From an uncultured Clostridia bacterium (GTDB taxonomy: Bacteria; Bacillota; Clostridia; TANB77; CAG-508), in the NCBI GenBank assembly GCA_944392455.1, contig CALXWP010000007.1, positions 43,559 to 107,558 of the forward strand: 64,000 nucleotides of DNA. Direction: 5' to 3'. The notes below the pieces were generated by a model. The model was not told the DNA's origin, searched no databases, and worked only from the letters and a program-made list of their open reading frames with translations. The translations under genes were made by a program, and so were the position numbers. Shown here piece by piece: positions 3,390-55,579 of the stretch; positions within the stretch are counted from its first letter, which is position 1; every line of letters starts with the position of its first letter.

Positions 3390-4193
3390 ATGTTACCAAC
3401 ATTTAATATTTTTGGCTATGAAATCGCCTCATATGGTTTTATAATTTTTTTAGGAATAATTATTGGATCTGTTGTTTCAGTGCAATATTTTTCTAAATTT
3501 TATGATATAAAAAAAGAAGATATCATATATAGTATATTATATGGAATTATAGGTCTAGGAATAGGTGCTAAACTTTTATATATCTTAACTAATATACCTT
3601 TCCTAATAGAAAATTATGATAAATTAGATTTATGGGAGACATTACTTCAGATGTTTAAAGGTGGTTTTGTTTTTTACGGAGGATTAATTGGTGGAATTAT
3701 AGGTATTTTTATATATTCTAAACAATTTAAAATCTCTTTTAAAAATCTCTTATTAATATTAGTACCAGTTATCCCATTAGTACATAGTATAGGAAGAATT
3801 GGATGTTTATGTGCTGGTTGTTGTTATGGCATGGAATATCATGGTTTTGGTGCAATTATATTTCATAACTCAAATTTAGCACCAAACGGAATCCCATTAT
3901 TTCCAATGCAAATTGTTGAAGCCTTTTGTTTATTTATAATATTCATAATTCTTTTAGTTACTTATAAAAGATTTTTAGGCACATATAAAACTGTAGGATT
4001 ATATTGTATTTTATACAGCATTGTTAGATTTACACTAGAGTTCTTTAGAGGTGATTTAATTAGAGGTATATACTTTAGCTTATCTACTTCTCAATGGATT
4101 AGTATAGTAATATTTATTATAGGTATTGCAATATTTATATACGAGCATAAAAAAACAAAAGATAATGTTAAGAAAAAAGAATTTAAGAATTAA
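3390..4193 (+). CDS. lgt: Prolipoprotein diacylglyceryl transferase
   Basis: 267 aa polytopic membrane protein. Lgt-like blocks (FYGGLIGG, GRIGCLCAGCCYG in the position of the Lgt signature). Confidence 0.65.
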   Translation: MLPTFNIFGYEIASYGFIIFLGIIIGSVVSVQYFSKFYDIKKEDIIYSILYGIIGLGIGAKLLYILTNIPFLIENYDKLDLWETLLQMFKGGFVFYGGLIGGIIGIFIYSKQFKISFKNLLLILVPVIPLVHSIGRIGCLCAGCCYGMEYHGFGAIIFHNSNLAPNGIPLFPMQIVEAFCLFIIFIILLVTYKRFLGTYKTVGLYCILYSIVRFTLEFFRGDLIRGIYFSLSTSQWISIVIFIIGIAIFIYEHKKTKDNVKKKEFKN

Positions 4194-5258: not shown

Positions 5259-6443
5259 TTACTCCTTTCTTAATCCTAAATATCTATATGGATTTTCTAT
5301 TTTATCTTTTTTACTATCTTCTATTAAATCATTAAATACTGATTCAATCTCTTTAGTAGTTGTATCTCTACCACCAATACCATATACATAGCTTGATGCT
5401 AGCACATTATCTTTGTTAATATACATTGCAGATGTAACATCTTCAAATAAAGCTCCTCCTGCACCATTTACAGAATCTGCTTTATCTAATATTGCAACAG
5501 CTTTTAAATGAGAAAGTGCTTTAGCTACTTCTTCTGCTGGGAATGGTCTAAATACACGAATTTTTAATAGACCTGCTTTTATTCCTTTTTCTCTTAAGTC
5601 ATCTACCACTTCTTTGGTTGTACCTGCAGTAGAGTTCATACATACTATTGCTATTTCTGCATCATCTAATTTATATTCTTCAAACAAACCATATTTTCTT
5701 CCTGTCATTTTTTCAAAATCTTTAGCTACATCTAATATAACTTGTTTTGCATTTCTCATAGCCTCAGCTTGCCCATATTTATGTTCAAATAAATATGTTT
5801 GAACATCTAAAGGTCCAATTGCAATTGGTTCTTTTTTATTTAATAAATAATGTTCTGGATGATATTCTCCAACAAATTCTTTTACTTTTTCATCTTCAAT
5901 TAATTCTATATTCTCTATAGAATGTGATGTTATAAATCCATCTTGGCAAACCATTAATGGAAGCATTACATTTTTATTTTCTGCTATTCTATGAGCCATA
6001 ATTAAATTATCATATGCTTCTTGGTTTGTTTCTGAAAATATTTGAATCCAACCACTATCACGAGCCCCCATTGCATCTGAATGATCATTGTGAATATTAA
6101 GTGGTCCTGATACTGCTCTATTTACTAAAGACATAACAATTGGAAGTCTTAAGCTTGATGCAATATATATCATTTCCCACATAAGTGATAATCCATTTGC
6201 AGATGTTGCTGTCATTGCTCTTGCTCCTGCAGCTTCTGCACCAATACAAGCACTCATTGCACTATGCTCACTTTCAACTGCAACAAATTCAGTATCTACT
6301 TGTCCATTATCCACAAATGTAGAAAAATATTGTGGAATCTCTGTTGATGGTGTTATAGGAAATGCTGCTACAACATCTGGATTTATTTGTTTCATAGCTG
6401 TTGCTGCTGCTTCATTTCCACTTAAACGTTCTCTTATACCCAT
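5259..6443 (-). CDS. porA: 2-oxoacid:ferredoxin oxidoreductase alpha subunit
   Basis: 394 aa. POR/KOR alpha-domain similarity. Located in the operon with the beta, delta and gamma subunits. Confidence 0.85.
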   Translation of the reverse strand: MGIRERLSGNEAAATAMKQINPDVVAAFPITPSTEIPQYFSTFVDNGQVDTEFVAVESEHSAMSACIGAEAAGARAMTATSANGLSLMWEMIYIASSLRLPIVMSLVNRAVSGPLNIHNDHSDAMGARDSGWIQIFSETNQEAYDNLIMAHRIAENKNVMLPLMVCQDGFITSHSIENIELIEDEKVKEFVGEYHPEHYLLNKKEPIAIGPLDVQTYLFEHKYGQAEAMRNAKQVILDVAKDFEKMTGRKYGLFEEYKLDDAEIAIVCMNSTAGTTKEVVDDLREKGIKAGLLKIRVFRPFPAEEVAKALSHLKAVAILDKADSVNGAGGALFEDVTSAMYINKDNVLASSYVYGIGGRDTTTKEIESVFNDLIEDSKKDKIENPYRYLGLRKE

Positions 6444-6445
6444 AT

Positions 6446-6775
6446 TTATTCCTCCTCACCTTCAGTTTTCATAACTATTGCACCAAATGGGCATACTTTT
6501 GCGCATACTCCACATCCTTTACAATAATCATAATTAAAATCTGTTCTCTTTTGATCTCCTCCTACTGGAATTGCGTCTTCTGGGCAAACAGGGAAACATA
6601 GACCGCATTGAATACATTTTTCCGGTATATATTCAGGTCTTACACTTCTCCAATCACCTGTTTTAAACTCTCTAGCATTTCCAGCTTCATATATATTTCC
6701 ACCAATTGTCATTTTGTCTGCTGGTGTATTTTTATCTATATTAGTCATTATTAGCTCCTTTCTATGCAAAAGCAT
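6446..6775 (-). CDS. porD: 2-oxoacid:ferredoxin oxidoreductase delta subunit (2x[4Fe-4S] ferredoxin)
   Basis: 109 aa. CIQCGLCFPVCP and CKGCGVCAKVCP motifs. Confidence 0.85.
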   Translation of the reverse strand: MLLHRKELIMTNIDKNTPADKMTIGGNIYEAGNAREFKTGDWRSVRPEYIPEKCIQCGLCFPVCPEDAIPVGGDQKRTDFNYDYCKGCGVCAKVCPFGAIVMKTEGEEE

Positions 6776-7485: not shown

Positions 7486-8919
7486 TTATTTTTTTGCAGG
7501 TATTCTAATTACTACTTCAGTACCTTTACCTACAACACTTTTTATATTAATACTACCTTTATTTTGATTAAGTATTTCTTTTGCAATTGAAAGACCAAGT
7601 CCTGTTCCTCCAAGTTCTCTACTTCTAGCTTTATCAACTCTATAAAATCTATCAAAAATTCTTTCCAAATCTTCTTCTGGAATTCCAATACCATTATCAA
7701 TTACTTTAATATATGCATCATTGTATACAAACCCTACATATACTTTTATGACTCCATTATCAGGTGTATATTTTATAGCATTTGATAAAATATTTAATAC
7801 TACTCTTTCTATTCCATATTTGTCAGCCTCAATTGGTGGTACACTTGCTGTAACAAAGCATTCAACATTATGGTTTTTCTTTTCAATTTCAAATTTTAAT
7901 TTTTCTATACATTTCTTTACAAGATCACCTAGATCAAAAGTCGTAATATCTGATGTGATTTTTTTACTATCATATCTAGAAAGAGTAAGTAGATCTGTAA
8001 CAAGTCTTGCCATTCTTTTGGCTTCAGCAGAAATTACAGTTAAAAATTTAGTTCTTGTTTCTTCATCATATTCACCTTCTAAAAGAGTATCTGCATATCC
8101 CATTATTGATGTAATAGGTGTTTTTAATTCATGTGATACATCTGCCACAAATTCTTTTCTCATATTATCTAATTTTACATGTTCTGTTATATCTTGTATT
8201 AATGTCACAACTCCTGCTGGTCTATCATTTTCATCTTGAAATGGAGCAAAAAGAATATTGACATATTTTTCTCCTACATGTTTTCTTTGCTCAGATGAAG
8301 TCCAATTTTCCAAATAGATTACTTTCTCAATATTTATATTTATGTCTAATCTTCTAAATATCTTTTCAAAATCATCATCATTTTCTTTTAAACCTAATAA
8401 ATTCTTTGCAGCAGGATTAATATGAATTATCCCACCATCTACATCAAAAGCAATAATTCCATCAGTCATATGTAATAATATTGTTTCAATTTGCTTTTTT
8501 TGTCTATTAACTTCACTTAGTTTTTCTTTTAGCTCATTTGTCATTAAGCTAAATGCATTTTCCAAATCTCCTACTTCTCCAGCTTTTTGCCCATTATCAT
8601 TTATCTTTATATTTTCTCCCGAAGCCATTTTTTCAGCACTTTTAATTAACTTTTTCATAGGAAATACTAATGCTTTAGCAACAAAAAAACCTATTAAAAT
8701 GGAAATAATCGCATAGATAGCAAGTGAGATAATAATAGTTAATTTCATTTGTGATAGTTGAGTATTTATACTTTGTATAAGTTCAATATTAGCTTGTTCT
8801 GCTCCTATTTCTTCTAATTGATTTAACATATATATATAACTTGCTCCCAAGCCTAAAATCAGAAGTACTCCCAATAGAAAAAATATTATAACTATTTTTA
8901 AATTAATATTCTTTTTCAT
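7486..8919 (-). CDS. Sensor histidine kinase (TM-HAMP-PAS-HisKA-HATPase; WalK/PhoR-like)
   Basis: 477 aa. Two TM segments, H-box SHELKTPITSI, N/G boxes (NAIKYT, DNGIGIPEED, GGTGLGLSIAK). Confidence 0.85.
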   Translation of the reverse strand: MKKNINLKIVIIFFLLGVLLILGLGASYIYMLNQLEEIGAEQANIELIQSINTQLSQMKLTIIISLAIYAIISILIGFFVAKALVFPMKKLIKSAEKMASGENIKINDNGQKAGEVGDLENAFSLMTNELKEKLSEVNRQKKQIETILLHMTDGIIAFDVDGGIIHINPAAKNLLGLKENDDDFEKIFRRLDININIEKVIYLENWTSSEQRKHVGEKYVNILFAPFQDENDRPAGVVTLIQDITEHVKLDNMRKEFVADVSHELKTPITSIMGYADTLLEGEYDEETRTKFLTVISAEAKRMARLVTDLLTLSRYDSKKITSDITTFDLGDLVKKCIEKLKFEIEKKNHNVECFVTASVPPIEADKYGIERVVLNILSNAIKYTPDNGVIKVYVGFVYNDAYIKVIDNGIGIPEEDLERIFDRFYRVDKARSRELGGTGLGLSIAKEILNQNKGSINIKSVVGKGTEVVIRIPAKK

Positions 8920-8958: not shown

Positions 8959-9726
8959 CTAACCATTTTCTTCCCTTTCTTTTGATGATAAGTAATATCC
9001 TACACCTCTTTTAGTAATTAATAATTTAGGACTTGATGTATCTTGTTCTATTTTTTCTCTTATCCTTCTTATTGTTACATCAACTGTTCTAATATCTCCA
9101 TAATATTCATATCCCCAAACCTTTTCTAGCAAAGATTCTCTTGTTACTACTTGTCCTGGTTGATTTGCAAGATATCTTAGTACTTCAAATTCTCTTAAAG
9201 TGAGCTCTATTGGTTTGTTTCTTACTCTAACTTCAAATTTATCTAGATTAATATATAATTCTCCTATCTCAATAATTTTGTCATTATCATTTTTGTTTTC
9301 ATTACCTACATTATCTGTTATAACTTTACCACTATTTACTTCTGCTTTCCTTAAGTTTGCTTTTACCCTTGCAACTAGCTCTCTCACACTAAATGGTTTA
9401 GTTATATAGTCATCTGCACCAAGTTCTAATCCTAATATCTTATCTATTTCTTCGTCTTTTGCAGATATCATGATAATAGGTATATTTAATGAATTTCTTA
9501 TCCTTTTACACACAGTTAAGCCATCTACTTTTGGAAGCATAATATCTAATAGGATTAAATCTGGTTTTTTATCAAAAGCTATTTCTATTGCTTTTTCCCC
9601 ATCATTTGCTTCTATTGTGTTATATCCTTCTTTTTGTAAATTATATACCAAGATATCTACAATTGGTTTTTCATCATCAACTATTAATATTGTTTTTTTT
9701 GCTTCTTCAAATTTATTTTCTTCCAC
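8959..9726 (-). CDS. OmpR-family DNA-binding response regulator
   Basis: 255 aa. Receiver (DDEK...DLILLDIMLP...K) plus winged-helix C-terminus (LTLREFEVLRYL...RESLL). Unusually long linker. Confidence 0.85.
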   Translation of the reverse strand: MEENKFEEAKKTILIVDDEKPIVDILVYNLQKEGYNTIEANDGEKAIEIAFDKKPDLILLDIMLPKVDGLTVCKRIRNSLNIPIIMISAKDEEIDKILGLELGADDYITKPFSVRELVARVKANLRKAEVNSGKVITDNVGNENKNDNDKIIEIGELYINLDKFEVRVRNKPIELTLREFEVLRYLANQPGQVVTRESLLEKVWGYEYYGDIRTVDVTIRRIREKIEQDTSSPKLLITKRGVGYYLSSKEREENG

Positions 9727-9881
9727 AAAAAGTTCACCTTTCTTCTTTTTTAACTGATTATATTTATATCATATAAAATCTAATTATACAAGTATCCTAA
9801 TCCGTTTTTTTAATGTTTTTGTATTTTTATATCTATTTTTTCGCTTTTTTCAGAGTAATAAATCGAAAAAATCCTTCTAAT

Positions 9882-9910
9882 TTGACTTTATGTTAATTTC
9901 AAGTTATAAT
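9882..9910 (+). promoter_or_regulatory. Consensus sigma-A promoter for the higher-GC lipoprotein gene
   Basis: TTGACT, 17-nt spacer, TATAAT. Followed by RBS aaggagg (9925-9931) and ATG at 9941. Confidence 0.5.
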
Positions 9911-9940
9911 ATATATATCATCTTAAGGAGGTACATTTTT

Positions 9941-10402
9941 ATGAAAAAATGTCGGATTTATCGTATCATTACAACGATTCTGATGTTCACTCTGATGGCT
10001 TCAATGCTTGCTGGGTGTGCAAAAAAAGAACCCGAGGAACCTACTGAAGAGGAGGTGCGTATCGAAGAGTTGGAATACCAGGTCAATCAGTTAAAAGAGG
10101 AAAATGAGACTCTTACTTCCGATATGGAATATTACAAGAGCATGGTCAATTCCTCTGACACTGAATTCTTCCAGATTTTCTTCTGGCAGACTGGATCGCT
10201 TTATAGTGCTGGTGACATGCAGTTCTATTCAGACTGTTTCTGCTCTCAGCCAATTGACTCTCCAGTGTTTGTTTCCAACAAATCTATCGGAGTTGAGCTC
10301 GAAAATGGTTTTTATGTTTTCGCGGCTCTCTCAACAGAAGGGCTTGTTTGGTCTACTGACGGACCAAACTTAAATCCGATCGAAATCGAAGAAGAAAAGT
10401 AA
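9941..10402 (+). CDS. Lipoprotein of unknown function (compositionally atypical, higher GC)
   Basis: Track ORF 9890..10402. Preferred start MKKCRIYRIITTILMFTLMASMLAGC with lipobox LAGC. Coiled-coil segment, then a Cys/aromatic-rich domain. GC and codon usage (ctg, gcg, cgg, ccc) differ clearly from neighbours. Confidence 0.6.
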   Translation: MKKCRIYRIITTILMFTLMASMLAGCAKKEPEEPTEEEVRIEELEYQVNQLKEENETLTSDMEYYKSMVNSSDTEFFQIFFWQTGSLYSAGDMQFYSDCFCSQPIDSPVFVSNKSIGVELENGFYVFAALSTEGLVWSTDGPNLNPIEIEEEK

Positions 10403-10434
10403 TACCCCTGAATAGGAAGTTTTCTTTTCTCGAG

Positions 10435-10466
10435 AAAAAAGACCGTTCTTCTTGAGCGGTCTTTTT
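10435..10466 (+). terminator. Intrinsic terminator
   Basis: aaaaagaccg...cggtcttttt stem, then a T-run. Adjacent palindrome ttttctcgagaaaa. Confidence 0.55.
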
Positions 10467-10501: not shown

Positions 10502-11446
10502 TTATCTTTCTTGATCATCTTTATTTTGTTCTTGATCCTTTGTTTGTTCATCATAGTCTTTAAGCTCTATATTTCCTTTATCATCTATTGTGAAGTCTTT
10601 AACTGCAACATTTTCTGATATTTGTAAATATAGGCTTTCTAATTTTCTTATAGCATTTCTCTTAGTTATTTTATCAGCTTTTAAATCTTCTATTAAATCA
10701 TCATATTCTCCTGTTTGAATTATTAAATCAGATATTTCTTTAGGTATACTATTTTCTTTTCCAAATCCAAATATAAGTCCATTATTATTAGTATATATTT
10801 CTCTATCACTATAACTGTCTTCATTAATTCTAACTGATGTATGAAATGATCCATCACTATTATCAAAACTATACCATAATTTTACATCATCTCTTGATAC
10901 TCCTCTTAATTCAGCAACTTTGTCTTTAATTGCGTTAAAATTCAATGTTCTCACTTCTCTTATCATAGCAATTACATCATTATCAGTCATATCTAGAACT
11001 GAATTTTCATCAAAATTTGCAAAATATTCATCATATTTTTCCATTAATTCTAATGTATCTTGCTCTAATCCAATATCATCTAAGTCAATTCCTGTTTCTT
11101 CTAATTGACTTATTGTTTGTATTCCTTCATCTCTGTTATGTAAATTAGCAATATTTCCTATAACTGCTATACTTCCTAATCCTATACTTGCAGCTAAGAG
11201 TAATGCTCCAAGTTTTAATCTTGGTTTTTTTCTTTTTTTAGCCTTATCTCTTGCTCTATATGCACTTCCTACTGGTGCTTTATATACTGTTCCTGGAAAT
11301 TCTATTACATTATCATCCCTACTTGAAATTCGTCTTGTATTTCTCCCTGAACTTCTTGTTTGGTTTCTTCTTTCTTGTGATTTAGTACCTTTTTTTGCGC
11401 TTCTTCTTTGTTCTTCTCTAAATTTTCTAGCATCATCAGATCCCAT
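10502..11446 (-). CDS. Hypothetical membrane-anchored protein (basic N-terminus, one TM, acidic extracytoplasmic domain)
   Basis: 314 aa. No recognisable catalytic motifs. Confidence 0.45.
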   Translation of the reverse strand: MGSDDARKFREEQRRSAKKGTKSQERRNQTRSSGRNTRRISSRDDNVIEFPGTVYKAPVGSAYRARDKAKKRKKPRLKLGALLLAASIGLGSIAVIGNIANLHNRDEGIQTISQLEETGIDLDDIGLEQDTLELMEKYDEYFANFDENSVLDMTDNDVIAMIREVRTLNFNAIKDKVAELRGVSRDDVKLWYSFDNSDGSFHTSVRINEDSYSDREIYTNNNGLIFGFGKENSIPKEISDLIIQTGEYDDLIEDLKADKITKRNAIRKLESLYLQISENVAVKDFTIDDKGNIELKDYDEQTKDQEQNKDDQER

Positions 11447-11554
11447 ATTTAATCATCCCTTGCTTTTTTATATTTTGACTTAATTATATATTATTTCTTT
11501 TTTTTGTCAATATAAATTTATTTAACTATTGACATACATTCCACTAAAATAATT

Positions 11555-12253
11555 TCACAAGCTCCGTCCTCCTGTATCAGTTCTTGTCATACTAGATGGT
11601 CCCCATGACCAATTATCTCCTTTGCAATATACGAGCCATCCTACTATTTTTACAATATCTCCTTCTCTAACTTTTTTTAGTACTGTTTTTACTTGATTAT
11701 TCATTGGAATTATGTGATTGTTCGAAACATAATTTCCAGATTCTTCTTTAAATCTTTCGTAGTAATCACCTTGGAATGTTAAATTTGTGTATCTATCATT
11801 TATAACACTAACTACTCCTATATCACCAATATATCTTTCTTGAGCTGCTGGTCCCCATCCTAAAACTAAATCTTCTGGAGATATACTATTAGCGCCTCCA
11901 CCAAAATAATAAAATTCTCTTCCAAGAACCATTCCTGTTATATCATATTCTGCTAATTTTGTTATTTCTACACCTTTAAATTCTATTATTTCTTGTTCTA
12001 TTAGCTCTTTCTGTATTGGATTAGACTGAATAGTACTTTTAGATTTTTCCAATACTATTTTGTTTGCTTTTTTTACAGCAAATTGATCAAATATTATTTT
12101 AAATAATAATATCCATACTAATATTATTAATATAATTATTACTATTTTTTTAATTTTCTTTTTCTTTGATTTTTGTTGTTCTTCATAAATTCTTGTAGGT
12201 ATATTTTTCTTTTCTCCAGATTTTAAAACTTTTTCTTTTACTTCTTTTAACAT
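11555..12253 (-). CDS. Hypothetical membrane-anchored protein
   Basis: 232 aa. K-rich N-terminus, one TM, C-terminal domain with WGPAAQ / WSWGP motifs. Confidence 0.45.
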   Translation of the reverse strand: MLKEVKEKVLKSGEKKNIPTRIYEEQQKSKKKKIKKIVIIILIILVWILLFKIIFDQFAVKKANKIVLEKSKSTIQSNPIQKELIEQEIIEFKGVEITKLAEYDITGMVLGREFYYFGGGANSISPEDLVLGWGPAAQERYIGDIGVVSVINDRYTNLTFQGDYYERFKEESGNYVSNNHIIPMNNQVKTVLKKVREGDIVKIVGWLVYCKGDNWSWGPSSMTRTDTGGRSL

Positions 12254-12487
12254 TAAATCCCCTTTGTTAAAAAATATTTATTTTCAATTTTATTTTAGTT
12301 ATTTTATAATTAAAAGTCAACGATGTAAAACAAAGTTTCATAAGAAAACTCATAGCTTTATTTTTATAATATGGATAAATAACATTATTTTCTCTTTGTT
12401 CTTTATAATTTAATTTTTAGAGCATAATGACAAATACAATATAAACTTTTTATATAATAGAAATTTAAAAATTTTATATTACATAAA

Positions 12488-12534: not shown

Positions 12535-12954
12535 TCAAGCACCTTTTCTTTGGTTGTTGGATTTAATTCTTGCACGCTTTCTTCGCTTCAGCTTTCTTTC
12601 TAATTCCCAGTAAACATTAAATATGACATATATCCATACTAATGCAAGTCCTGGAAACATAGCTATTGCTAAGAAAAGGTACAAGATTTTTGCAAAAGTT
12701 CCTGAATTGCTGTAACCCCTGATAATGGGATCTTCAGAATTATAGAACTTCTGCCGTTCCTCGTGGTTTCTATTGTATGCGTCTGTCATTTCGTCTGTTT
12801 TCCTGGACTGTTCATTATAATAACTTGCGTTATCACGCAGAACGATTAGGCTAGCACCTGTTCGAATGACTGTACTGCAGATTTGAAACGTACTAATGGT
12901 CCCAACAACCAAAATAAGGATAGTTAATAACATCGCTAAAGTCCGTACTCTCAT
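12535..12954 (-). CDS. Hypothetical small membrane protein (compositionally atypical, higher GC)
   Basis: 139 aa. N-terminal TM, ~70-aa polar segment, second TM, basic tail RRKRARIKSNNQRKGA. Has its own promoter in the 76-bp gap after the cgs stop codon. Confidence 0.55.
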   Translation of the reverse strand: MRVRTLAMLLTILILVVGTISTFQICSTVIRTGASLIVLRDNASYYNEQSRKTDEMTDAYNRNHEERQKFYNSEDPIIRGYSNSGTFAKILYLFLAIAMFPGLALVWIYVIFNVYWELERKLKRRKRARIKSNNQRKGA

Positions 12955-26841: not shown

Positions 26842-28010
26842 CTATACTAAAACAAATTTTTTAATTAACACTAATCCAGCTCCAAGTATTACTAGTACTC
26901 CTGTTATTACTCCTATGTAGTGTCCTCCTATACCTGATACTATTGATAATACTACTGATGCTTCATCTATGTCATCTTCTCCTTTTTCAAAGTTATCTGG
27001 CACAGAATCTATATCTTCTACTGGTTCATGATTCTCATCACTATCTTCTGATATCTCTGCCCAGTTTGTCTTTACTCCTAGGTTGTTTTGTCCATTTATC
27101 CATCTAAATGTTATCTCTATTACTACACTTTCTCCTGGTTCTAATAATGTATCATTTAGTTGAGTTGTTGTTACTGTCTCTCCATCTTCTGATAATTCCC
27201 ATCCTTCATTATCTTCTTCTACAAACTCTAGTCCTTCTGGTATGTAGTCTGTTATTTCTTCTGCATATCCTGCCATATTTCCTTCGTTTGTTATTCTTAT
27301 TTGATATGTGAATTTTATTACCGCTGTCTCTATTTTATGGTTTCCTAATTCTACTTTTACTACTTCTTCTGGATCATCTTCAAAATGATGTCCTGTCTCT
27401 TCTACATATGTCTCTCCATCTAATATCATTGTTACTTTTGATACTATCTTTCTTAATGCTAAATCAAAGTATGTTACTTTTACTTTTTCTATATCGATGT
27501 CATCTTCTCCATCTTCATCATTGTCTGGCACAGAATCTATATCTTCTACTGGTTCTCCATCTTCATCACTATCTTCTGATATTTCCGCTGTGTTTATTAA
27601 CACTCTATCTGATGTATTTGGTTCTATTACTCTAAATGCTATTTGTACATCTTTATAGTCTGGCTGACTCATTGTTTCTGGATCAAATGCTTCTATTAGA
27701 TTATCTCTTCCTGTCTCATCCCCTTGTTCCTTTGATAAGTAATCTGTTCTTATTGTTTCTGCTTCTTCTACATTTTCTGTTACATTTCCATTTGCATCAT
27801 ACATTACCCATCTATACTCTGTGTTTACTTCATTTTCTGGTAAAAATTCTAGTCCTTCTGGTAAGTCATCTTTTACTTCTTCTGCATATCCTGCAACTTC
27901 ACCTTCATTATATACTCTTATTGTATATATTACTATGTCTCCATTACTTACTTCAACAGGTTCTTTTGTATGTTCATATGTATATTCACCATTATTGTTT
28001 GTAAATACTG
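26842..28010. repeat. Inter-gene duplicated segment (near-identical to 33022-34190)
   Basis: Antisense shadow ORFs 27108-27311 vs 33285-33488 and 27408-27635 vs 33585-33812 translate identically. The offset is 6177 nt. Confidence 0.8.
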
Positions 28011-31000
28011 GTACTCTATTTGTTATTTCTTCTTCATTTATTCCTGTTATGAATTTTCTTAATGCTAAATCAAAATATTTTACTTTGATTTTCTCTATAT
28101 CAATATCATCTTCACCATCTTCATCATTATCTGGCACAGAATCTATATCTTCTACTGGATTTCCATCTTCGTCGCTATCTTCTGATATTTCTGCTGTATT
28201 TATTATTATTCTATCTGATGTATTTGGTTCTGTAACTTTAAATGCTATTTGCACTTCTTTATAGTCTGGTTCATCCATTGTATCTGGATCAAATGCTTCT
28301 ATTAGATTATCTCTTCCTGATAGCCCCCCTTGTTCCTTTGATAAGTAATCTGTTCTTATTGTTTCTGCTTCTTCTACATTTTCTGTTACATTTCCATTTG
28401 CATCATACATTACCCATCTATACTCTGTGTTTACTTCATTTTCTGGTAAAAATTCTAGTCCCTCTGGTAAGTCATCTTTTACTTCTTCTGCATATCCTGC
28501 CTCAGTTCCTTCATTGTATATTCTCAATGTATATATTACTATATCATTTGTTGCGACTTCAACAGGTTCTTTTGTATGTTCATATGTATATTCACCATCA
28601 TTGTTTGTAAATACTGGTACTCTATTTGTTATTTCTTCTTCATTTACTCCTGTGATGAATTTCCTTAATGCCAAATCAAAAATATTATTTTCAATTGTTA
28701 CTTCTATAATACTTCCATCTACTACTTGTAAATTTACAAGTTCACCATTTATTCTTTCTGCTGTAATAACATATTCACCATTTATTAATTTAACATCAAT
28801 CTCTATTTCTACTGGTTCTGGTAATATATTATATCCTTCTGGTGCTCCTGTTTCTGTTATAATATATCTATGTGTTCCTTCAGCTGTTATTTTAATTTTT
28901 CCTGTTACAACTTCTCCATTTTCATTTGTTGTTAAATTATCAAATGTGTTTATAACTGTTCCATCTGAATCCACTTCTTCTATTTTAAATACTGCATTAC
29001 TTAATCTATCTGATATTCCATTTTGTTTTATTAACTTAATTTCATAATCACCTACAGTAGCTGGTAACACTAACTCTTCATAATCGTCATCATCCTCATA
29101 TCCATGTCCTTGTTCTGATGTTCCTGGATTATAATTATTTTTCTGATCATCTGTCAAATTATCTTCTACTGAATCTCTATCATTTACTTCATTTCTTTCT
29201 ATATTTTCTGATTTTGTTATTTCTGCAACATTTTTTAAACTTATACTTGTAACTTGTTTTGTAGCTACTACCTCACATTCAATTTCTAAATCCACATAAT
29301 CAATTGTTTTTCCATCAAATGCGTCAATTAAATCATCTGATAAAGCAGTCGTTACTATTGTTCTTCCATCACCATTTGGATTTGTCCAGCCATTATCTTC
29401 ATTAATTTGGCTATCTTCTTTTAATATTAATCCTTCTGGTAAATAATCTGTTACTTCTTCTGCATATCCTGCTTCTTTTCCTTCGTTATATATTCTTATT
29501 ATATATGTTACTGTATCTCCTGTATTAACACTTATTGGATCTTTTGTATGTAACTTATCTGCTGTTGTAACTCTTCCATTATCTAAATCTTCTACTGCAT
29601 TATCAGTTATTTCTGGTTCTCTACTTACTTCTACATTTTCTCCATTTACTTTTGTAATAAATTTTCTTAATGCTAAATCAAAATATGTTAATTTTACTTT
29701 TTCAATATCAATATCATCCTCACCATCTTCATCATTATCTGGTACAGAATCTATATCTTCTATTGGATCACCATCTTCATCACTATCTTCTGATATTTCT
29801 GCTGTATTTATTAAAATCCTATCCGATGTATTTGGTTCTATTACTTTAAATGCTATCCTTACTTCTTTATAGTCTGGCTCATTCATTGTATCTGGATCAA
29901 ATGCTTCTATTAGATTATCCCTTCCTGTCATCTCTCCTTGAGCCTTAGATAAATAATCTGTTCTTATTGTTTCTGCTTCTGATACATTCTCTGTCACATT
30001 TCCTTCTGCATTATACATTACCCATCTATAATTGATATTTGTTGTATTATCAGGTAAGAATTCTAATCCTTCTGGAATATCATCTTTTACTTCTTCTGCA
30101 TATCCTGCAATATCCCCTTCATTATATATCCTTAATGTATATATTACAGTATCTTCTGTTTGTACTAAAACAGGGTCTTTTGTATGTTCATATGAATACT
30201 CGCCATTATTATTTTTAAATACAGGTTCTCTATTTGTTATACTTTGACTGTTTACTCCTGTTATGAATTTTCTTAATGCCAAATCAAATTTTTGAACAAC
30301 AATTTTTTCAAAATCATCATCATCTTGTTGTCCTGGTATATAACTGTCTCCTCTATTTATTTCTGTATCTTTATAGTTTGGAAGAGTTGTATCTGATGGT
30401 AATGTTACATTATCTGCTCCAGAGTCTCTATCTGTTACTGTTCCTCCTGATCTATCAGTAAATCCTGATATTTCTGCAATATTGGTTAATTTTTCACCTG
30501 CTACAGCTGTACTTTTTACTCTACATTTAATTTGTACTTCTGCATAATCTAGTGAACTTCCATTAAATGCATTTATTATTTCACCTGCTAAATAAGTGGT
30601 CGTTACTGTTCTACCATCTCCAGATACGTTCCAGCCTCTTTGAGTATTAAAGCTATCGTTTACAAATTCTAAGTTTTCTGGTAAATGATCTGTTATCTCT
30701 GTTACTATTCCATCAAGTTGTCCTTCATTATATACTCTTATTGTGTATATTACTTCATCTCCAACTTTCACAGCAATTGGTGTTTTTGAATGATTGTATA
30801 TTGCTGTTGTTGCAGATCCATTTGCCAAATTTGTTATATTTACGCTTGGAGCTCTATTTACACTTTCTCCATCAACATTACTAATAAATTTTCTTAAAGA
30901 TAAATCAAAATATTTTCCTAGCATTACTAAGTCTTCAAAATCGTCATCATCTTCTTGTGATGTTGTTCCATATCCATCCACCCTTACATTATCTGGTGTT

Positions 31001-32685
31001 GAATCTCTATCTGGTAAACCTTCATCATTTGTTGCTCCTGTTATTTCTGCTATATTCTTTAAGTTTATATTTGATTCTGTTACACTTGCTGTTACTTCAC
31101 ATTCTATTTGTACATCTAAATAACTTAATGTTGTTCCATCAAATGCTGGTATTGTTTGTCCACTTAAATAACTTGTTGTTACTTCTCCATTACTTCCTGT
31201 TTGCCATCCATATTTTGTATTTATACTGCTTCCTGCTTTTAAACTTAATCCTGTTGGTAAGTAATCTGTTATCTCAGTGGCCTGTCCATCTACTTCTCCT
31301 TCGTTATATACCCTTATTGTATATATTACACTATCTCCTGTCTCTACTGTTAATGCATTCTTTGGATGTATCTTCTCTGCTGTTGTTATTCTTCCTGCCT
31401 CTAAGTTATTTAATGTTTCCTCACTTATTTGTGGTACTCTACTTGTACTTGGAGCTACTCCATTTATACTTGTTATGAATTTTCTTAATGCTAAATCAAA
31501 TATTTTTTCTTCTTCTGGTGGTTTTATAAATTCTGTACTATCACTATATTCTTCTTGCTCTCTCTCTATTATTACTACCGGTTGTTCTGATGAATTTGCT
31601 CCCTCTACTGCCCAGTATGTTATTTTTGTATCATAATATTCTCCACTTATACTTAATGTTACTTTATCTACATTTGTTGTTTTTGATACTACTATATAAA
31701 AGTCTTGTCCTATTGTTGCTTCTATACTACTAAATCTACTTCCACTTGCATTTTGTAATGTTGGGTTTAATGTTGTTCCTTCTCCATTTTTGAATACTGC
31801 TTCTAGTGTTGCATCTGTGTCACTTATTTTATTTATTCTAAATGGTCCTATTACATAATTACTTCCACTATCTGTTATTGTTTTTGTTGTCTCTGCTATT
31901 TCATATGGTTGACTCACTGTTGTTGGTGTGTAACTTGACGCATGTCCTTCTGCTTCTTCTATTAAATAGCTATATAATGCTTTTGCTTCCTCATTTCTTA
32001 TATCTCCTTCTACTGCTCCTTCTCCCTTCTTATCTCCTAAGGGATTATATCCTGAGTCTTGTCCTGCTACTTGATTTATCCATAATGAAAAGTTTCCACT
32101 ATCTCCTACATCATATGCATCTCCATCATTTGTAAAATGCCATATTGCTAATTGTTGTACTACATCTATATCATCATCTGTTAGTGGACTTCCTGTTAAT
32201 CCTGCATTATCTAATAATAAATCTCTATAATCTGATGCTGCTTGTTTTTCCTCTGTTGTTGCTCCTGATTTTGCTGGTACATATACATTCTCTAATAACC
32301 ACATTAATGAATTATACGTACTTCCACTTGGCAATGCATTTACATATGGACTTGGTATTGAATCTCTATCTTTCATATCAAAATATCTTGTATACTCTCT
32401 ATGCGTTGGATTTCCACTTCCGAATTCACTTGACCCAAATCCTGGTCCTCCTTTTAAACAGTAGATTGTACTATCATAGTTTGCTGTTGATCCATTACTA
32501 TTTGTTTCTACTATTTTCCATACATTCTTTTCTAATGCCTTATATCCATATCCTGAACTTCTTAATGCTTTTATTGTTAAGTATTTGCTTCCTGTTGCTG
32601 CATTTGAAACATTAAAATTACCACTAACTGCTATTGTTAGTATTGTCATTAGAATGATTAATATTACTCCTTTTATTTTTCTCAT
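26842..32685 (-). CDS. Giant surface protein: signal peptide, putative thioester (TED-like) adhesin domain, seven DUF11-like repeats plus one CnaB-like domain, C-terminal TM anchor
   Basis: 1947 aa. Signal peptide ending NVSNA. Candidate thioester residues YCLK and QQLAIW. Repeats beginning FDLALRKFIT... with the DUF11-like block TYTIRVYNEG..AGYAEEV.D.LPEGLEF. Acidic Asp-rich linkers DIDSVPDNDEDGEDDIDIEK. C-terminal hydrophobic segment then KKFVLV. No LPXTG. Confidence 0.7.
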   Translation of the reverse strand: MRKIKGVILIILMTILTIAVSGNFNVSNAATGSKYLTIKALRSSGYGYKALEKNVWKIVETNSNGSTANYDSTIYCLKGGPGFGSSEFGSGNPTHREYTRYFDMKDRDSIPSPYVNALPSGSTYNSLMWLLENVYVPAKSGATTEEKQAASDYRDLLLDNAGLTGSPLTDDDIDVVQQLAIWHFTNDGDAYDVGDSGNFSLWINQVAGQDSGYNPLGDKKGEGAVEGDIRNEEAKALYSYLIEEAEGHASSYTPTTVSQPYEIAETTKTITDSGSNYVIGPFRINKISDTDATLEAVFKNGEGTTLNPTLQNASGSRFSSIEATIGQDFYIVVSKTTNVDKVTLSISGEYYDTKITYWAVEGANSSEQPVVIIEREQEEYSDSTEFIKPPEEEKIFDLALRKFITSINGVAPSTSRVPQISEETLNNLEAGRITTAEKIHPKNALTVETGDSVIYTIRVYNEGEVDGQATEITDYLPTGLSLKAGSSINTKYGWQTGSNGEVTTSYLSGQTIPAFDGTTLSYLDVQIECEVTASVTESNINLKNIAEITGATNDEGLPDRDSTPDNVRVDGYGTTSQEDDDDFEDLVMLGKYFDLSLRKFISNVDGESVNRAPSVNITNLANGSATTAIYNHSKTPIAVKVGDEVIYTIRVYNEGQLDGIVTEITDHLPENLEFVNDSFNTQRGWNVSGDGRTVTTTYLAGEIINAFNGSSLDYAEVQIKCRVKSTAVAGEKLTNIAEISGFTDRSGGTVTDRDSGADNVTLPSDTTLPNYKDTEINRGDSYIPGQQDDDDFEKIVVQKFDLALRKFITGVNSQSITNREPVFKNNNGEYSYEHTKDPVLVQTEDTVIYTLRIYNEGDIAGYAEEVKDDIPEGLEFLPDNTTNINYRWVMYNAEGNVTENVSEAETIRTDYLSKAQGEMTGRDNLIEAFDPDTMNEPDYKEVRIAFKVIEPNTSDRILINTAEISEDSDEDGDPIEDIDSVPDNDEDGEDDIDIEKVKLTYFDLALRKFITKVNGENVEVSREPEITDNAVEDLDNGRVTTADKLHTKDPISVNTGDTVTYIIRIYNEGKEAGYAEEVTDYLPEGLILKEDSQINEDNGWTNPNGDGRTIVTTALSDDLIDAFDGKTIDYVDLEIECEVVATKQVTSISLKNVAEITKSENIERNEVNDRDSVEDNLTDDQKNNYNPGTSEQGHGYEDDDDYEELVLPATVGDYEIKLIKQNGISDRLSNAVFKIEEVDSDGTVINTFDNLTTNENGEVVTGKIKITAEGTHRYIITETGAPEGYNILPEPVEIEIDVKLINGEYVITAERINGELVNLQVVDGSIIEVTIENNIFDLALRKFITGVNEEEITNRVPVFTNNDGEYTYEHTKEPVEVATNDIVIYTLRIYNEGTEAGYAEEVKDDLPEGLEFLPENEVNTEYRWVMYDANGNVTENVEEAETIRTDYLSKEQGGLSGRDNLIEAFDPDTMDEPDYKEVQIAFKVTEPNTSDRIIINTAEISEDSDEDGNPVEDIDSVPDNDEDGEDDIDIEKIKVKYFDLALRKFITGINEEEITNRVPVFTNNNGEYTYEHTKEPVEVSNGDIVIYTIRVYNEGEVAGYAEEVKDDLPEGLEFLPENEVNTEYRWVMYDANGNVTENVEEAETIRTDYLSKEQGDETGRDNLIEAFDPETMSQPDYKDVQIAFRVIEPNTSDRVLINTAEISEDSDEDGEPVEDIDSVPDNDEDGEDDIDIEKVKVTYFDLALRKIVSKVTMILDGETYVEETGHHFEDDPEEVVKVELGNHKIETAVIKFTYQIRITNEGNMAGYAEEITDYIPEGLEFVEEDNEGWELSEDGETVTTTQLNDTLLEPGESVVIEITFRWINGQNNLGVKTNWAEISEDSDENHEPVEDIDSVPDNFEKGEDDIDEASVVLSIVSGIGGHYIGVITGVLVILGAGLVLIKKFVLV
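30950..32685. repeat. Inter-gene duplicated segment (near-identical to 35600-37356)
   Basis: Shadow ORFs 30957-31478 vs 35610-36131 are identical over 522 nt. Offset ~4653 nt. Copy 1 carries an extra ~1.5 kb of internal repeats. Confidence 0.8.
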
Positions 32686-33021: not shown

Positions 33022-36000
33022 TTATAGTACAAATCTCTTGATCAATACTAATCCAGTTCCAAGTATTACTAGTACTCCTGTTATTACTCCTATATAATGT
33101 CCTCCTACACCTGATACTATTGATAATACTACTGATGCTTCATCTATATCATCTTCTCCTTTTTCAAAGTTATCTGGCGTTGAATCTATATCTTCTACTG
33201 GCTCATGATCTTCATCACTATCCTCTGATATCTCAGCCCAGTTTGTCTTTACTCCTAGGTTGTTTTGTCCATTTATCCATCTAAATGTTATCTCTATTAC
33301 TACACTTTCTCCTGGTTCTAATAATGTATCATTTAGTTGAGTTGTTGTTACTGTCTCTCCATCTTCTGATAATTCCCATCCTTCATTATCTTCTTCTACA
33401 AACTCTAGTCCTTCTGGTATGTAGTCTGTTATTTCTTCTGCATATCCTGCCATATTTCCTTCGTTTGTTATTCTTATTTGATATGTGAATTTTATTACCG
33501 CTGTCTCTATTTTATGGTTTCCTAATTCTACTTTTACTACTTCTTCTGGATCATCTTCAAAATGATGTCCTGTCTCTTCTACATATGTCTCTCCATCTAA
33601 TATCATTGTTACTTTTGATACTATCTTTCTTAATGCTAAATCAAAGTATGTTACTTTTACTTTTTCTATATCGATGTCATCTTCTCCATCTTCATCATTG
33701 TCTGGCACAGAATCTATATCTTCTACTGGTTCTCCATCTTCATCACTATCTTCTGATATTTCCGCTGTGTTTATTAACACTCTATCTGATGTATTTGGTT
33801 CTATTACTCTAAATGCTATTTGTACATCTTTATAGTCTGGTTGAGTCATTGTTTCTGGATCGAATGCTTCTATTAGATTATCTCTTCCTGACAACTCTCC
33901 TTGTGCCTTTGATAAATAATCTGTTCTTATTGTTTCTGCTTCTTCTACATTTTCTGTTACATTTCCTTCTGCATCGTACATTACCCATCTATATTCTGTA
34001 TTTACTTCATTTTCTGGTAAAAATTCTAATCCTTCTGGTAAGTCATCTTTTACTTCTTCTGCATACCCTGCCTGTGTTCCTTCATTATATACTCTTATTG
34101 TATATATTACTATGTCTCCATTACTTACTTCTACTGGTTCCTTTGTATGTTCATATGTATATTCACCATCATTGTTTGTAAATATTGGCACTCTGTTTGT
34201 TATTTCTTCTTCATTTACTCCTGTGATGAATTTCCTTAAGGCCAAATCAAAGTATGTTACTTTAATTTTTTCTATATCAATATCATCTTCACCTTCTTCA
34301 TCATTATCTGGCACAGAATCTATATCTTCTACTGGATTTCCATTTTCGTCACTATCTTCTGATATTTCTGCTGTATTTATTATTATACTATCTGATGTAT
34401 TTGGTAATGTCACCTTAAATGCTATCCTTACTTCTTTATAGTCTGGCTCATTCATTGTATCTGGATCAAATGCTTTTATTAGGTTATCTCTTCCTGATAG
34501 CTCACCTTGTTCCTTTGATAAATAGTCTGTTCTTATTGTTTCTGCTTCTTCTACATTTTCTGTTACATTTCCTTCTGCATCATACATTACCCATCTATAG
34601 TTTATATTCGTTGTATTATCTGGTAAAAATTCTAATCCTTCTGGAATATCATCTTTTACTTCTTCTGCATATCCTGCAATGTCTCCTTCATTATATATTC
34701 TTAATGTATATATTACTGTATCTCCTGTTGCTACTAGAATAGGTTCTTTTGTATGTTCATATGTATACTCACCATTATTGTTTGTAAATACTGGTACTCT
34801 ATTTGTTATTTCTTCTTCATTTACTCCTGTTATGAATTTTCTTAATGCTAAATCAAATACTTGAATTACTACTTTTTCAAAATCATCATCATCTTGTTGT
34901 CCTGGTATATAGCTGTCTCCTCTATTTATCTCTTCATCTTTATAATTTGGTAATGTCTCATCTGATGGTAATGTTACATTGTCTTTTTGAGAGTCAATAT
35001 CTGTTATTTCATTATCATCAGAATCTGTAAATTCTGTTATTTCTGCGATATTAGTTAATTTTTCATCAGGTACTACTGTGTCAGTTACTTTACATTTAAT
35101 TTGTACATCTATATAGTCTAATGAACTTCCACTAAATGCTTCTAATATAACCTTATCAGCGCCATCTTTTCTATTTTCATAAATTGTATCTCTATTTGCA
35201 GAGTATTCTGTATCTGGTGATGTTATATCTGTTGTTACAGTTCTTCCATCAGCTGATACTCTCCATCCATATTGTGCATTAAAACTGTCATTTATAAATT
35301 CTAGATTTTCTGGTAAATAATCTGTTATTTCTTTTACATATCCATCAAGTTGTCCTTCATTATATACTCTTATTGTATATATTACTTCATCTCCTGCACT
35401 TACAGAAACTGGTGTCTTTGGATGGTTATATATTGCTGTTGTTGAAGATCCATTTGCTAAATTTGTTACATTTACTACTGGCTCTCTTAAATATCTACCT
35501 GAATTATCTACTAATTCTTCATCATTTACTTGTATTATAAATTTTCTTAAAGATAAATCAAAATATTTTCCTAGCATTACTAAGTCTTCAAAATCATCAT
35601 CATCTTCTTGTGATGTTGTTCCATATCCATCCACCCTTACATTATCTGGTGTTGAATCTCTATCTGGTAAACCTTCATCATTTGTTGCTCCTGTTATTTC
35701 TGCTATATTCTTTAAGTTTATATTTGATTCTGTTACACTTGCTGTTACTTCACATTCTATTTGTACATCTAAATAACTTAATGTTGTTCCATCAAATGCT
35801 GGTATTGTTTGTCCACTTAAATAACTTGTTGTTACTTCTCCATTACTTCCTGTTTGCCATCCATATTTTGTATTTATACTGCTTCCTGCTTTTAAACTTA
35901 ATCCTGTTGGTAAGTAATCTGTTATCTCAGTGGCCTGTCCATCTACTTCTCCTTCGTTATATACCCTTATTGTATATATTACACTATCTCCTGTCTCTAC

Positions 36001-38434: not shown

Positions 38435-38508
38435 TGGAGGCGACACCCGGATTTGAACCGGGGATCAGAGTTTTGCAGACTCGTGCCTTACCACTTGGCT
38501 ATATCGCC
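38435..38508 (-). tRNA. tRNA-Cys (GCA)
   Basis: Reverse complement GGCGATATAGCCAAGTGGTAAGGCACGAGTCTGCAAAACTCTGATCCCCGGTTCAAATCCGGGTGTCGCCTCCA forms a cloverleaf. Anticodon loop CTGCAAA. CCA is encoded. Confidence 0.9.
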
Positions 38509-38591
38509 ATATACTATAATATATGCTTATAAAAATAAAAAATTACAAATTAAATTAAATTTTATAAAAAATAAAAAAGCAGTAGTAAAAT

Positions 38592-38665
38592 TGGAGGCGA
38601 CACCCGGATTCGAACCGGGGATCAGAGTTTTGCAGACTCGTGCCTTACCACTTGGCTATATCGCC
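38592..38665 (-). tRNA. tRNA-Cys (GCA), second copy
   Basis: Identical to the first copy except one T-loop base. Confidence 0.9.
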
Positions 38666-38685
38666 ATATACTACTGCTTTTTTTG

Positions 38686-38761
<76 letters not shown>

Positions 38762-38929
38762 ATATTGTCATTTTTTAAGAACAATTAATATAATAGCAAA
38801 AAAAAATATAAAAGTCAATAGATAGGTTTTAAATAAATTTATTATTATATATATTGAAAAATACGAGTCAATTGATATAATTATGTTACTATATTTTATA
38901 ATTATTTATTAAAATGTTGGGAGATTATT

Positions 38930-47964: not shown

Positions 47965-48093
47965 AAACTCCTTTTATTTATCCATTTATTATCAAAAATT
48001 TTTTATGCATATTTTATATATTATACTACTTTTTTCAACATTTTTCAATTGTAAACTACTTTGGTTCTATTGATCTTTTAACTACGTATAATT

Positions 48094-49050: not shown

Positions 49051-49140
49051 TTTTTTCTCCTTTAATCTTTATTTTTTAAAATAGAGCAGAAAATTTATTT
49101 TCTGCTCTTCTTTGATGTTTTATTTAGATATTAGCAATTA

Positions 49141-51975: not shown

Positions 51976-51984
51976 ATTCTCCCC

Positions 51985-55162: not shown

Positions 55163-55532
55163 TCTTTTCTTCCTCCTTATAAATATATATTTTTCTTCCT
55201 TTTGTTCTAAATTTTATGGCTCTTTTTATTATATCATCTATATTTTCTCCACCTGTTTTTTGTGCAAATTTAAATTTTCCTAAATTTGGCATTTTTAAAG
55301 TTCCGATTACAAATCCAATTAAAGCAAAAATTACTGTTATTACTATACCTACCATTGTTAGGCCAAATGCAGAAAATAAGAAATAAAATATAAGTCCACA
55401 AGATCCTCCAATTACAGTATACATCATACTTTTACCTGTGAAAATAAACAAAATTCTACCCTCACCTTTTACACTTCTTGGCAAGTTATATGTCCCCATA
55501 TATGCTTCCTCCTTCGTTAATCTTTTATCCAT
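55155..55532 (-). CDS. VirB3/TcpE-like small two-TM protein
   Basis: 125 aa. Two adjacent TM helices after a short cytoplasmic N-terminus. Directly upstream of the VirB4 region. Confidence 0.5.
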   Translation of the reverse strand: MDKRLTKEEAYMGTYNLPRSVKGEGRILFIFTGKSMMYTVIGGSCGLIFYFLFSAFGLTMVGIVITVIFALIGFVIGTLKMPNLGKFKFAQKTGGENIDDIIKRAIKFRTKGRKIYIYKEEEKNG

Positions 55533-55579
55533 ATTAATATAATTTATATTATAGCAGATTTTTTCCTAAAAAGATACAA

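Follow-up and report, generated by a model that had tools for sequence, protein, structure and literature searches.

A self-contained lipoprotein gene between conserved neighbors

The 64,000-nucleotide stretch analyzed here (the window; positions 43,559 to 107,558 of contig CALXWP010000007.1, assembly GCA_944392455.1) is from an uncultured Clostridia bacterium of the TANB77/CAG-508 lineage. At 9882-10466 it carries a small cassette composed of a promoter, a ribosome-binding site, a single open reading frame (ORF), and a terminator. The original prediction viewed the cassette as an autonomously expressed unit for an envelope lipoprotein, which our analysis supports, and as a horizontal acquisition, which it does not favor. 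The uncultured order TANB77 includes CAG-508 as one of its families, and TANB77/CAG-508 has been linked to immunotherapy response (PMC11680825).

On the forward strand, a predicted sigma-A type promoter (9882-9910) has the TTGACT (9882-9887) and TATAAT (9905-9910) elements that were first described, separated by a 17-nt spacer and matching the consensus at 11 of 12 positions. The ribosome-binding site AAGGAGG (9925-9931) is also present as described, 9 nt ahead of the ATG at 9941, and is kept in orthologs. The coding sequence (CDS; 9941-10402) has a GC content of 0.413 and a GC content at third codon positions (GC3) of 0.442. It is 462 bp long as reported, but that length includes the stop codon (10400-10402) and the product has 153 rather than 154 amino acids. 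An intrinsic terminator hairpin follows in the expected place (10436-10466) with a stem of 13 bp, not 10, containing five G-C pairs and closed by a 5-nt loop. The hairpin has U-runs on both strands and so, by its sequence, could also serve the convergent downstream gene. A hairpin is found at the equivalent position in every ortholog but the sequences are not homologous, making these analogous terminators. The perfect 14-nt palindrome noted before the terminator, TTTTCTCGAGAAAA (10425-10438), is present but unremarkable. The window contains 14 such palindromes versus 10.5 +/- 3.6 in shuffles, this one is not conserved in the sister species (L008), and it is probably without function.

To the left of the cassette, on the reverse strand, is a gene for a WalR/YycF-like response regulator (8959-9726) that matches Pfam and scores 335 bits with the NCBIfam YycF model (cut-off 340). 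Beyond it a WalK-like kinase without the N-terminal sensor is encoded (7486-8919, reverse strand; WalK 377 bits, cut-off 725). The right-hand neighbor (10502-11446, reverse strand) codes for a 314-aa membrane protein with no assigned function and has a host-like GC3 of 0.08. A scan with the neighboring kinase yielded 80 loci, designated by L numbers, all in metagenome-assembled genomes (MAGs) from uncultured gut Clostridia, among them Clostridium sp. CAG:508. The gene order GH94, small genes, the 314-aa gene, walR, walK, and PFOR is conserved.

Only L001-L007, which belong to the window's species, L008/L009, L010, L090-L092, L099, and L100 have the cassette between walR and the 314-aa gene. 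These carriers form one clade on a neighbor-joining tree of the histidine kinase and response regulator. L011-L021 and L046 lack the cassette at this position. In L012-L017, L021, and L046 the 314-aa gene is followed by the walR promoter after 69-138 bp, leaving no room for a cassette. The cassette is therefore accessory at this locus, not a core gene, and its distribution is parsimoniously explained by one gain at this site. In the window, the homology to the walR upstream region of the empty-site relatives stops at about 9806. The AT-rich left end of the segment they lack would then span 9807-9881, its boundary being approximate, and 9807-9940 has a GC content of 0.19. The inferred promoter of the divergent walR-like gene (TTGTAT ... 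TGATATAAAT; 9763-9792, reverse strand) matches the walR upstream sequence conserved in those relatives. No integrase, transposase, tRNA, or bracketing repeats were found at the site. A single allele of the gene was found in seven contigs of the window's species.

Beyond the 314-aa gene there is a strain-variable indel (11523-12473) with a gene for a 232-aa protein (11555-12253) of host-like GC3. It is present in L002 and L090-L092 and missing in L001, of the same species and 96% identical, as well as in L008, L010, and L100.

The product belongs to an undescribed lipoprotein family

The ORF at 9941-10402 is a real protein-coding gene. The window and L008 proteins share 86% amino acid identity, with a ratio of nonsynonymous to synonymous rates (dN/dS) of 0.06 and a proportion of synonymous differences (pS) of 0.60. 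Could the region instead be a structured RNA, or an assembly artefact, with a fortuitous ORF? A GC-rich island in an AT-rich genome often turns out to be a structured RNA, such as the tRNA cluster at 38.4 kb of the window, and the cassette transcript folds better than its shuffled versions (z = -3.0). Such a non-coding origin is effectively refuted by the low dN/dS at saturating synonymous change, by a signal peptide, lipobox, and domain motif conserved across 63 relatives, and by a confident AlphaFold2 (AF2) model. In addition, there is no match to Rfam in the cassette and the same cassette sequence was recovered in nine independent assemblies.

The signal peptide and lipobox are encoded at 9941-10018 on the forward strand. 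The signal sequence MKKCRIYRIITTILMFTLMASM, of the pattern MKK...MLAG-C26, has a basic n-region and a hydrophobic h-region, and AF2 predicts a helix over residues 3-24. Its L-A-G-C fits the lipobox pattern [LVI][ASTVI][GAS]C with Cys26 as the lipid-attachment residue. The Cys is retained in most relatives and lost in allele P0007. The window also encodes lgt, for the enzyme that modifies lipoproteins (3390-4193, 5.7 kb away; PF01790, E = 4e-45). These features predict a surface lipoprotein anchored through Cys26.

The AF2 model consists of the signal helix, one long helix, and a small helix-plus-beta domain. It reached a predicted confidence (pLDDT) of 89.7 with a 26-sequence alignment versus 49 with only three sequences. 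The long alpha-helix (residues 36-69, encoded at 10046-10147 on the forward strand; pLDDT 87-96) is a predicted coiled-coil stalk, its Pfam, PDB, and PHROG matches being to coiled coils only. The C-terminal domain (residues 72-150, encoded at 10154-10390 on the forward strand) was modeled with a pLDDT of 94-97 and is covered by alignment A2. Conservation in the family is centered on this domain with the motif FW.DG..Y....FYSDCFCS....SP....L.NG..VYA.LS..GIVWS...P, also written as FFW..G..Y....FYSDCFCS....SP....L.NG..V.A.LS..G.VWS...P. Against PDB and BFVD, the best Foldseek match was no better than E = 0.09. Searches with Pfam, NCBIfam, PDB profiles, PHROGs, and PADLOC gave only coiled-coil matches, which fell under the curated cut-offs where these exist. 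We regard the PHROG Rz-spanin and PADLOC matches as coiled-coil artefacts.

A word-indexed search returned just two near-identical proteins and a full HMMER scan was needed to reveal the family. In 1.84 billion representative proteins that scan detected 63 distant, unnamed relatives at E <= 1e-3, 21 of them at E <= 1e-10. Most of those retrieved are lipoproteins of 140-190 aa. Eight of the 34 retrieved sequences are 270-300 aa long and match the profile over two or three stretches, suggestive of a duplicated C-terminal domain. All ten family clusters looked up were from metagenome assemblies only and carried no name. Family scans with an alignment narrower than A2 (A3) found two metagenome loci and no viral loci. 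Taken together, the sequence comparisons point to an undescribed lipoprotein family with a new small domain. One protein, P0026 (140 aa), combines the C-terminal domain of the family with a peptidoglycan-binding-like N-terminus (GIFGTRTLNAVRDFQ), which may reflect either a natural fusion or a mis-assembly.

The atypical composition is confined to the coding sequence and terminator

Overall GC content is 28.1% in the window and 41.3% in the cassette CDS. The CDS GC3 of 0.442 compares with 0.130 +/- 0.026 (maximum 0.198) in 42 other window genes (z = 11.8), confirming that composition and codon usage are unlike those of the host and that GC3 is not uniform with the neighbors. Third positions of host genes are strongly skewed (A.52, T.36, G.08, C.05) and those of the cassette gene nearly even (A.22, T.33, G.24, C.21). 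The gene shuns the host-favored codons ATA, AGA, TTA, and CAA, with no ATA, AGA, or CAA at all. This departure does not extend beyond the CDS and terminator, with the promoter and 5' untranslated region (5'UTR) at a GC content of 0.21 versus 0.209 in host intergenic DNA.

Two rare codons recur in the family. At codons 4-5 (9950-9955 in the window), most members examined have the Arg codon CGG in the signal-peptide n-region, which the host practically never uses (0% of its Arg codons). The Pro codon CCG, with a share of 2% in the host, is seen repeatedly in the (N/D)P(I) motif conserved in the C-terminal part.

The promoter is inherited with the gene

Promoter-like matches are frequent in the AT-rich window (36 found versus 24 expected). 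As such matches are common in AT-rich DNA, a promoter match alone is weak evidence. What carries weight is conservation of the promoter in the gene family. The 5' regions of ten family members, some of them at unrelated loci, align over AATTTGAyTTTATGTYAAWTT...TATAAT. The pattern TTATGTYAAWTT-N5-TATAAT has 17 matches in the 1.58 Mb of the window and related loci, every one upstream of a family gene, and two more distant members, L102 and L104, also retain it. Thus, the promoter is inherited together with the gene, including at unrelated loci.

In the window the family-specific promoter core is AATTTGACTTTATGTTAATTT (9879-9899, forward strand). It contains an imperfect inverted repeat, AATTTGAC ... 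GTTAATTT, that overlaps the -35 element and spacer and may be an operator. The motif does not define a wider regulon, with zero matches outside the family, and the consensus sequences of CtsR, Spo0A, the sporulation sigma factors, and CodY do not fit the promoter. The promoter was also compared with the WalR box, TGTWAH-N5-TGTWAH. Its TGTTAA (9892-9897) is an exact half-site, and the second half-site, AGTTAT, matches at 5 of 6 positions and overlaps the -10 element. No exact WalR box by this consensus is present in the cassette, and a likeness of TGTTAA-N5-AGTTAT to WalR half-sites is speculation. Elsewhere in the window there are five exact matches to the same consensus (2981, 37509, 55623, 55634, and 57021) versus 1.6 expected. 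Two of the five overlap, upstream of pilin genes.

High GC3 is a family-wide trait

We located 13 distinct family members, of approximately 63 representatives, on their DNA. All 13 are in contigs of 26-30% GC, spread over eight genomic contexts, and have a GC3 1.5-4 times that of their neighbors. The values are.44 in the window,.45 in L008,.55 in L010,.50 in L100,.42 in both L090 and L099,.48 in L093,.35 in both L096 and L097,.24 in L098,.26 in L102,.22 in L103, and.25 in L104. The neighboring genes have a GC3 of.08-.25, most at or below.19. Beyond walRK, the contexts include SASP/ctsR, ldh/clpC, adhE/dnaG, corA/ABC-F, a neighborhood with a phosphatase and a tRNA methyltransferase, and one with ytxC and a spore protease.

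The original prediction took the atypical composition as a sign of horizontal acquisition. A fairly recent import from a donor of about 40-50% GC, with the GC3 as an un-ameliorated relic, would account for GC1, GC2, and GC3 values (0.46, 0.34, and 0.44) like those expected of a gene in a genome with about 42% GC. It would also fit the restriction of the cassette to a single clade whose sister lineages have empty sites. However, the raised GC3 of all 13 members in AT-rich hosts runs counter to such an origin, as does the AT-rich promoter and 5'UTR, which is co-inherited with the gene yet as AT-rich as the host. Neither the 1.84 billion representative proteins nor collections of phages, plasmids, and viral contigs yielded a GC-richer, phage, or plasmid homolog. 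Of the hallmarks of an alien gene, atypical composition is present; a donor of matching composition was not found, nor were mobility genes, a tRNA, or repeats at the site. Time also argues against a relic. Synonymous sites between orthologs are saturated (pS 0.77-0.80) while their GC3 remains 0.42-0.55. Using the flanking genes to estimate relaxation over the window-L010 divergence, at most 0.38 would be left even from a GC3 of 1.0, and the observed values are 0.44 and, in L010, 0.55, above that ceiling. We consider an import of this kind unlikely. The comparisons indicate instead that high GC3 is an old and stable trait of the family rather than the mark of a recent import. If the module was acquired laterally at this site, the donor was likely another AT-rich relative.

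Two other causes of the high GC3 were rejected. The highly expressed genes for EF-Tu, S2, EF-Ts, and S20 in the relatives have a GC3 of just.10-.19, so ordinary translational selection does not explain it. A GC-richer mutational equilibrium, approached by drift once codon selection relaxed, is ruled out by promoter, 5'UTR, and intergenic DNA at 21% GC.

The messages of the family are predicted to fold in excess

We compared the predicted folding of the native messages with that of sequences in which synonymous codons were permuted, holding the protein and codon usage constant. The z score was -2.3 for the window gene, -8.3 for L090, and -3.45 on average for the family (n = 10), compared to -0.88 +/- 1.06 (minimum -3.8) in 49 host segments. 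Half of the family members (5 of 10) had a z at or below -3.45 versus 2 of the 49 host segments (Fisher P = 0.0009). The difference held when codons were permuted within 30-codon blocks (family mean about -3.2, controls about -0.8). Dinucleotide-preserving shuffles likewise gave -3.0 for the window transcript, -6.1 for L010, -7.5 for the L090 CDS, and -5.1 for L099. The native folding energy per nucleotide in the family is about twice that of host genes. The mRNAs of the family are therefore predicted, on average, to fold in excess of what their proteins and codon usage call for. A helix closing the 5' and 3' ends of the mRNA (CGGAU with AUCCG) was also considered. It is found in four orthologs, mostly no better than with synonymous permutations, and was not retained.

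Whole coding sequences are exchanged within a fixed slot

Outside the gene, L090 and L099 are near-identical, with 95.0% identity over 6 kb upstream and 97.5% downstream. Between 6012 and 6529 the identity drops to about 45% (CDS 6001-6507), placing the breakpoints from 11 nt past the ATG to 22 nt past the stop codon. The two proteins are 35% identical and one is without the lipobox Cys. As the collapse in identity is bounded by the CDS, the promoter, ribosome-binding site, and terminator constitute a fixed slot in which the coding body is exchanged whole. Divergence is also rapid within the clade, where the nonsynonymous divergence (dN) of the lipoprotein is 0.32-0.47 versus 0.04-0.08 for walR/walK, or four to ten times higher.

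A surface lipoprotein gene with a GC content far above that of a 28% GC genome, and with a fixed promoter and terminator around a CDS that is wholly different between near-identical strains, invites comparison with antigenic-variation expression sites like vlsE, where the CDS is rewritten from silent cassettes elsewhere in the genome. Such a mechanism is highly improbable here. We found no second copy, fragment, or silent copy of the gene in the 64-kb window or the related loci and no direct repeats bracketing the CDS. Moreover, the L090 and L099 alleles differ over their whole length, not as mosaics, and only one allele was seen in the seven contigs of the window's species.

The same exchange raises the question of whether GC-biased gene conversion at a recombination hot spot produced the high GC3 with no benefit to RNA or protein. 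Whole-CDS replacement between near-identical genomes shows that recombination takes place here, and the interval between GH94 and walR is generally variable. Third positions favor G over A about 7-fold and C over T about 5-fold, and a strand-neutral force toward GC predicts similar odds for the two. Yet the enrichment ends at the CDS and terminator though recombination must cross the AT-rich flanks, and the GC3 excess accompanies the family to unrelated loci. Biased conversion also does not predict the better folding of the native versus permuted codon order. Reported effects of biased conversion in bacteria are far smaller than the shift from 0.13 to 0.44-0.55 required here. This explanation is, in our estimation, improbable, more so than import.

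A proposed diversifying surface lipoprotein with a selected message

The explanation we favor, with middling confidence, is that the gene is a resident one for a diversifying surface lipoprotein, its GC3 being upheld through selection that acts on the message. The protein, anchored at Cys26, would use its coiled-coil stalk to hold out the small beta domain. The unit of AT-rich promoter, ribosome-binding site, CDS, and hairpin terminator would have been gained by the ancestor of one small clade, in the space that separates walR from the 314-aa gene, its source most likely another AT-rich relative. Recombination in the conserved promoter and terminator flanks may then swap whole-CDS alleles between strains. 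The rapid divergence would be expected if phage, host antibody, or competitors exerted diversifying pressure on a surface protein, and the architecture and evolutionary pattern suggest that the protein probably acts at the interface with phage, host antibody, or neighboring cells. GC3 would be stationary in the family, kept by selection on synonymous sites in the mRNA. The likely target of that selection is a message that, for an exported protein, is more stably folded, longer-lived, and/or more slowly translated.

Several observations weigh against a selected message as the cause. The excess folding is uneven, with a z between -0.8 and -1.9 in L008, L093, L096, and L098, and z does not follow GC3. 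Small membrane-protein genes with a low GC3 have negative z scores as well (mean -2.2). Between the window and L008, 4 of the predicted pairs are compensatory, approximately 21 are changed on one side, and approximately 20 are broken, so that the structure is not clearly conserved. The placement on DNA, as noted, covers 13 of the family representatives. Two further points bear on an imported relic. Within the clade, by the window-L090 and window-L100 relaxation estimates, a gene that started at a GC3 of 0.6-0.8 could still have about 0.4 through incomplete decay. Among recent substitutions that could be polarised, 7 were GC>AT and 4 AT>GC, too few to differ significantly from neutral decay (P about 0.1).

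Other small GC3-rich genes in the window and its relatives

The prediction also grouped the lipoprotein gene with further GC-rich cassettes in the window. Two other genes do resemble it in being small, GC3-rich, and membrane-protein coding. The first (12535-12954, reverse strand) encodes a 139-aa protein with two transmembrane segments, has a GC3 of 0.36, and has its own TTGAAA-17-TATAAT promoter and terminator. Many relatives have homologs at the same GH94-walR position with a GC3 of 0.33-0.53, and its mRNA folds much better than synonymous permutations (z = -6.0). The second (57093-57500, reverse strand; GC3 0.35) encodes a protein of about 135 aa with multiple transmembrane segments and no family match, and has its own terminator within the secretion/conjugation region. 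The GC peak at 38.4-38.8 kb does not belong with them. Two tRNA-Cys(GCA) genes and one tRNA-Gly(GCC) gene (38435-38761, reverse strand) account for it, and the ORF at 38453-38788 is spurious.

More widely, a filter for high GC3 applied to 1.56 Mb of related loci retained 57 of 1413 non-overlapping ORFs, all 65-186 aa long. Some look spurious; the plausible ones are mostly membrane or secreted proteins from several families. Messages of small GC3-rich genes have a mean folding z of -3.1 (23 genes). The GH94-walR interval is a hot spot, with L010-L089 having differing small GC3-rich genes there or nothing. Most of the hot-spot genes code for proteins of 80-170 aa with two transmembrane segments, belonging to several unrelated families. 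One apparently non-membrane example, a 138-aa ORF with a GC3 of 0.55 in a 28% GC genome (L093 8493-8909, also in L094, L095, and L101), lies 2 kb from the L093 copy of the lipoprotein gene.

It is possible, though we would put it forward only tentatively, that the ultra-AT-rich uncultured gut Clostridia (TANB77/CAG-508-like) have a class of small, self-transcribed envelope-protein genes that combine three properties: a GC3 2-4 times the genomic level through long selection on the mRNA for folding, stability, or translation rate; exchange of highly divergent alleles between strains in a fixed promoter/terminator slot; and systematic misclassification as horizontal gene transfer (HGT) on compositional grounds. 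If so, the cassette would be the clearest member of the class, with a new surface-protein fold and an operator-like promoter.

Atypical GC content or codon usage is a standard shortcut for calling genes horizontally acquired. The cassette has a strong signal of this type (z about 12) in what appears to be a stable, family-wide trait of AT-rich hosts, and is thus a concrete counter-example to compositional HGT calling, for which selection on mRNA folding or translation is a testable cause. It also adds an unannotated surface-lipoprotein family with hypervariable alleles in a clade related to TANB77/CAG-508, where variable surface proteins are a likely interface with phage and host immunity. A fixed promoter/terminator slot with a swappable CDS is a natural design that might be drawn on to type strains of these organisms and for heterologous expression in them.

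Elsewhere, the window encodes a type IV secretion or conjugation-like gene set (about 44200-56900). It includes a 1254-aa wall hydrolase with M23, lysozyme, and M15 domains, a VirB4/TraG-like ATPase (51985-54030), PrgI (55155-55532), and three TrbC/VirB2-type pilins (55657-56893). Two very large paralogous surface proteins of 1947 and 1444 aa, both with internal repeats, are encoded on the reverse strand (26842-32685 and 33022-37356). The 1947-aa protein has Pfam thioester (TED), DUF11, and SpaA-like domains.

Comparison with known systems

Like the alanine-zipper lipoproteins Lpp/OprI and the small coiled-coil lipoproteins of the SA0632 type, the window protein has an N-terminal lipobox with a coiled-coil helix directly after it. 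Its scores with these models are below the cut-offs (21.5 bits versus 43 for NF040598, 24.3 versus 70 for NF047408, and 14.3 versus 29.1 for PF04728), and neither type has the C-terminal domain of about 80 residues that defines the window family. Rz-type i-spanins (PHROG 739 and others) share a membrane anchor and coiled coil with the family, and two members match them, P0004 with E = 2e-7 and P0007 with E = 4e-5. However, the match covers the anchor and coiled coil only, the window protein has no such match at E <= 0.01, and there is no holin, endolysin, or o-spanin context in what is a Clostridium-type organism.

As a small, single-gene, exchangeable unit at a fixed site, the cassette is reminiscent of integron cassettes. 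Unlike those, it has its own promoter, with no attC-like paired repeats and no integrase among the neighbors, and its exchange resembles homologous recombination in conserved flanks. The vlsE gene of Borrelia burgdorferi is a GC-rich surface lipoprotein gene in a genome of about 28% GC. The two genes have in common that they encode a surface lipoprotein, are far GC-richer than the genome, and combine a fixed promoter with a variable coding body. They differ in that no silent cassettes, flanking direct repeats, or mosaics were found in the window and related loci, and in that the variation seen here is between strains rather than within a clone.

Finally, the cassette can be compared with phage morons (reviewed in PMC3594210) as Hendrix and colleagues define them. 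Similar to a moron, it is one small gene, complete with promoter and intrinsic terminator, inserted where relatives have two genes side by side. Its composition is unlike that of its flanks (GC3 0.44 versus 0.13) and its product is a lipoprotein, as with many morons. Morons are independent transcription units in prophages, whereas the cassette is outside any phage or prophage and flanked by PFOR, walRK, and GH94, conserved in about 80 MAGs, and is without phage, plasmid, or viral-contig homologs in the collections searched. By analogy, the module appears to behave as a moron of the chromosome, one whose contrast in composition would be old and family-wide instead of a relic of transfer.

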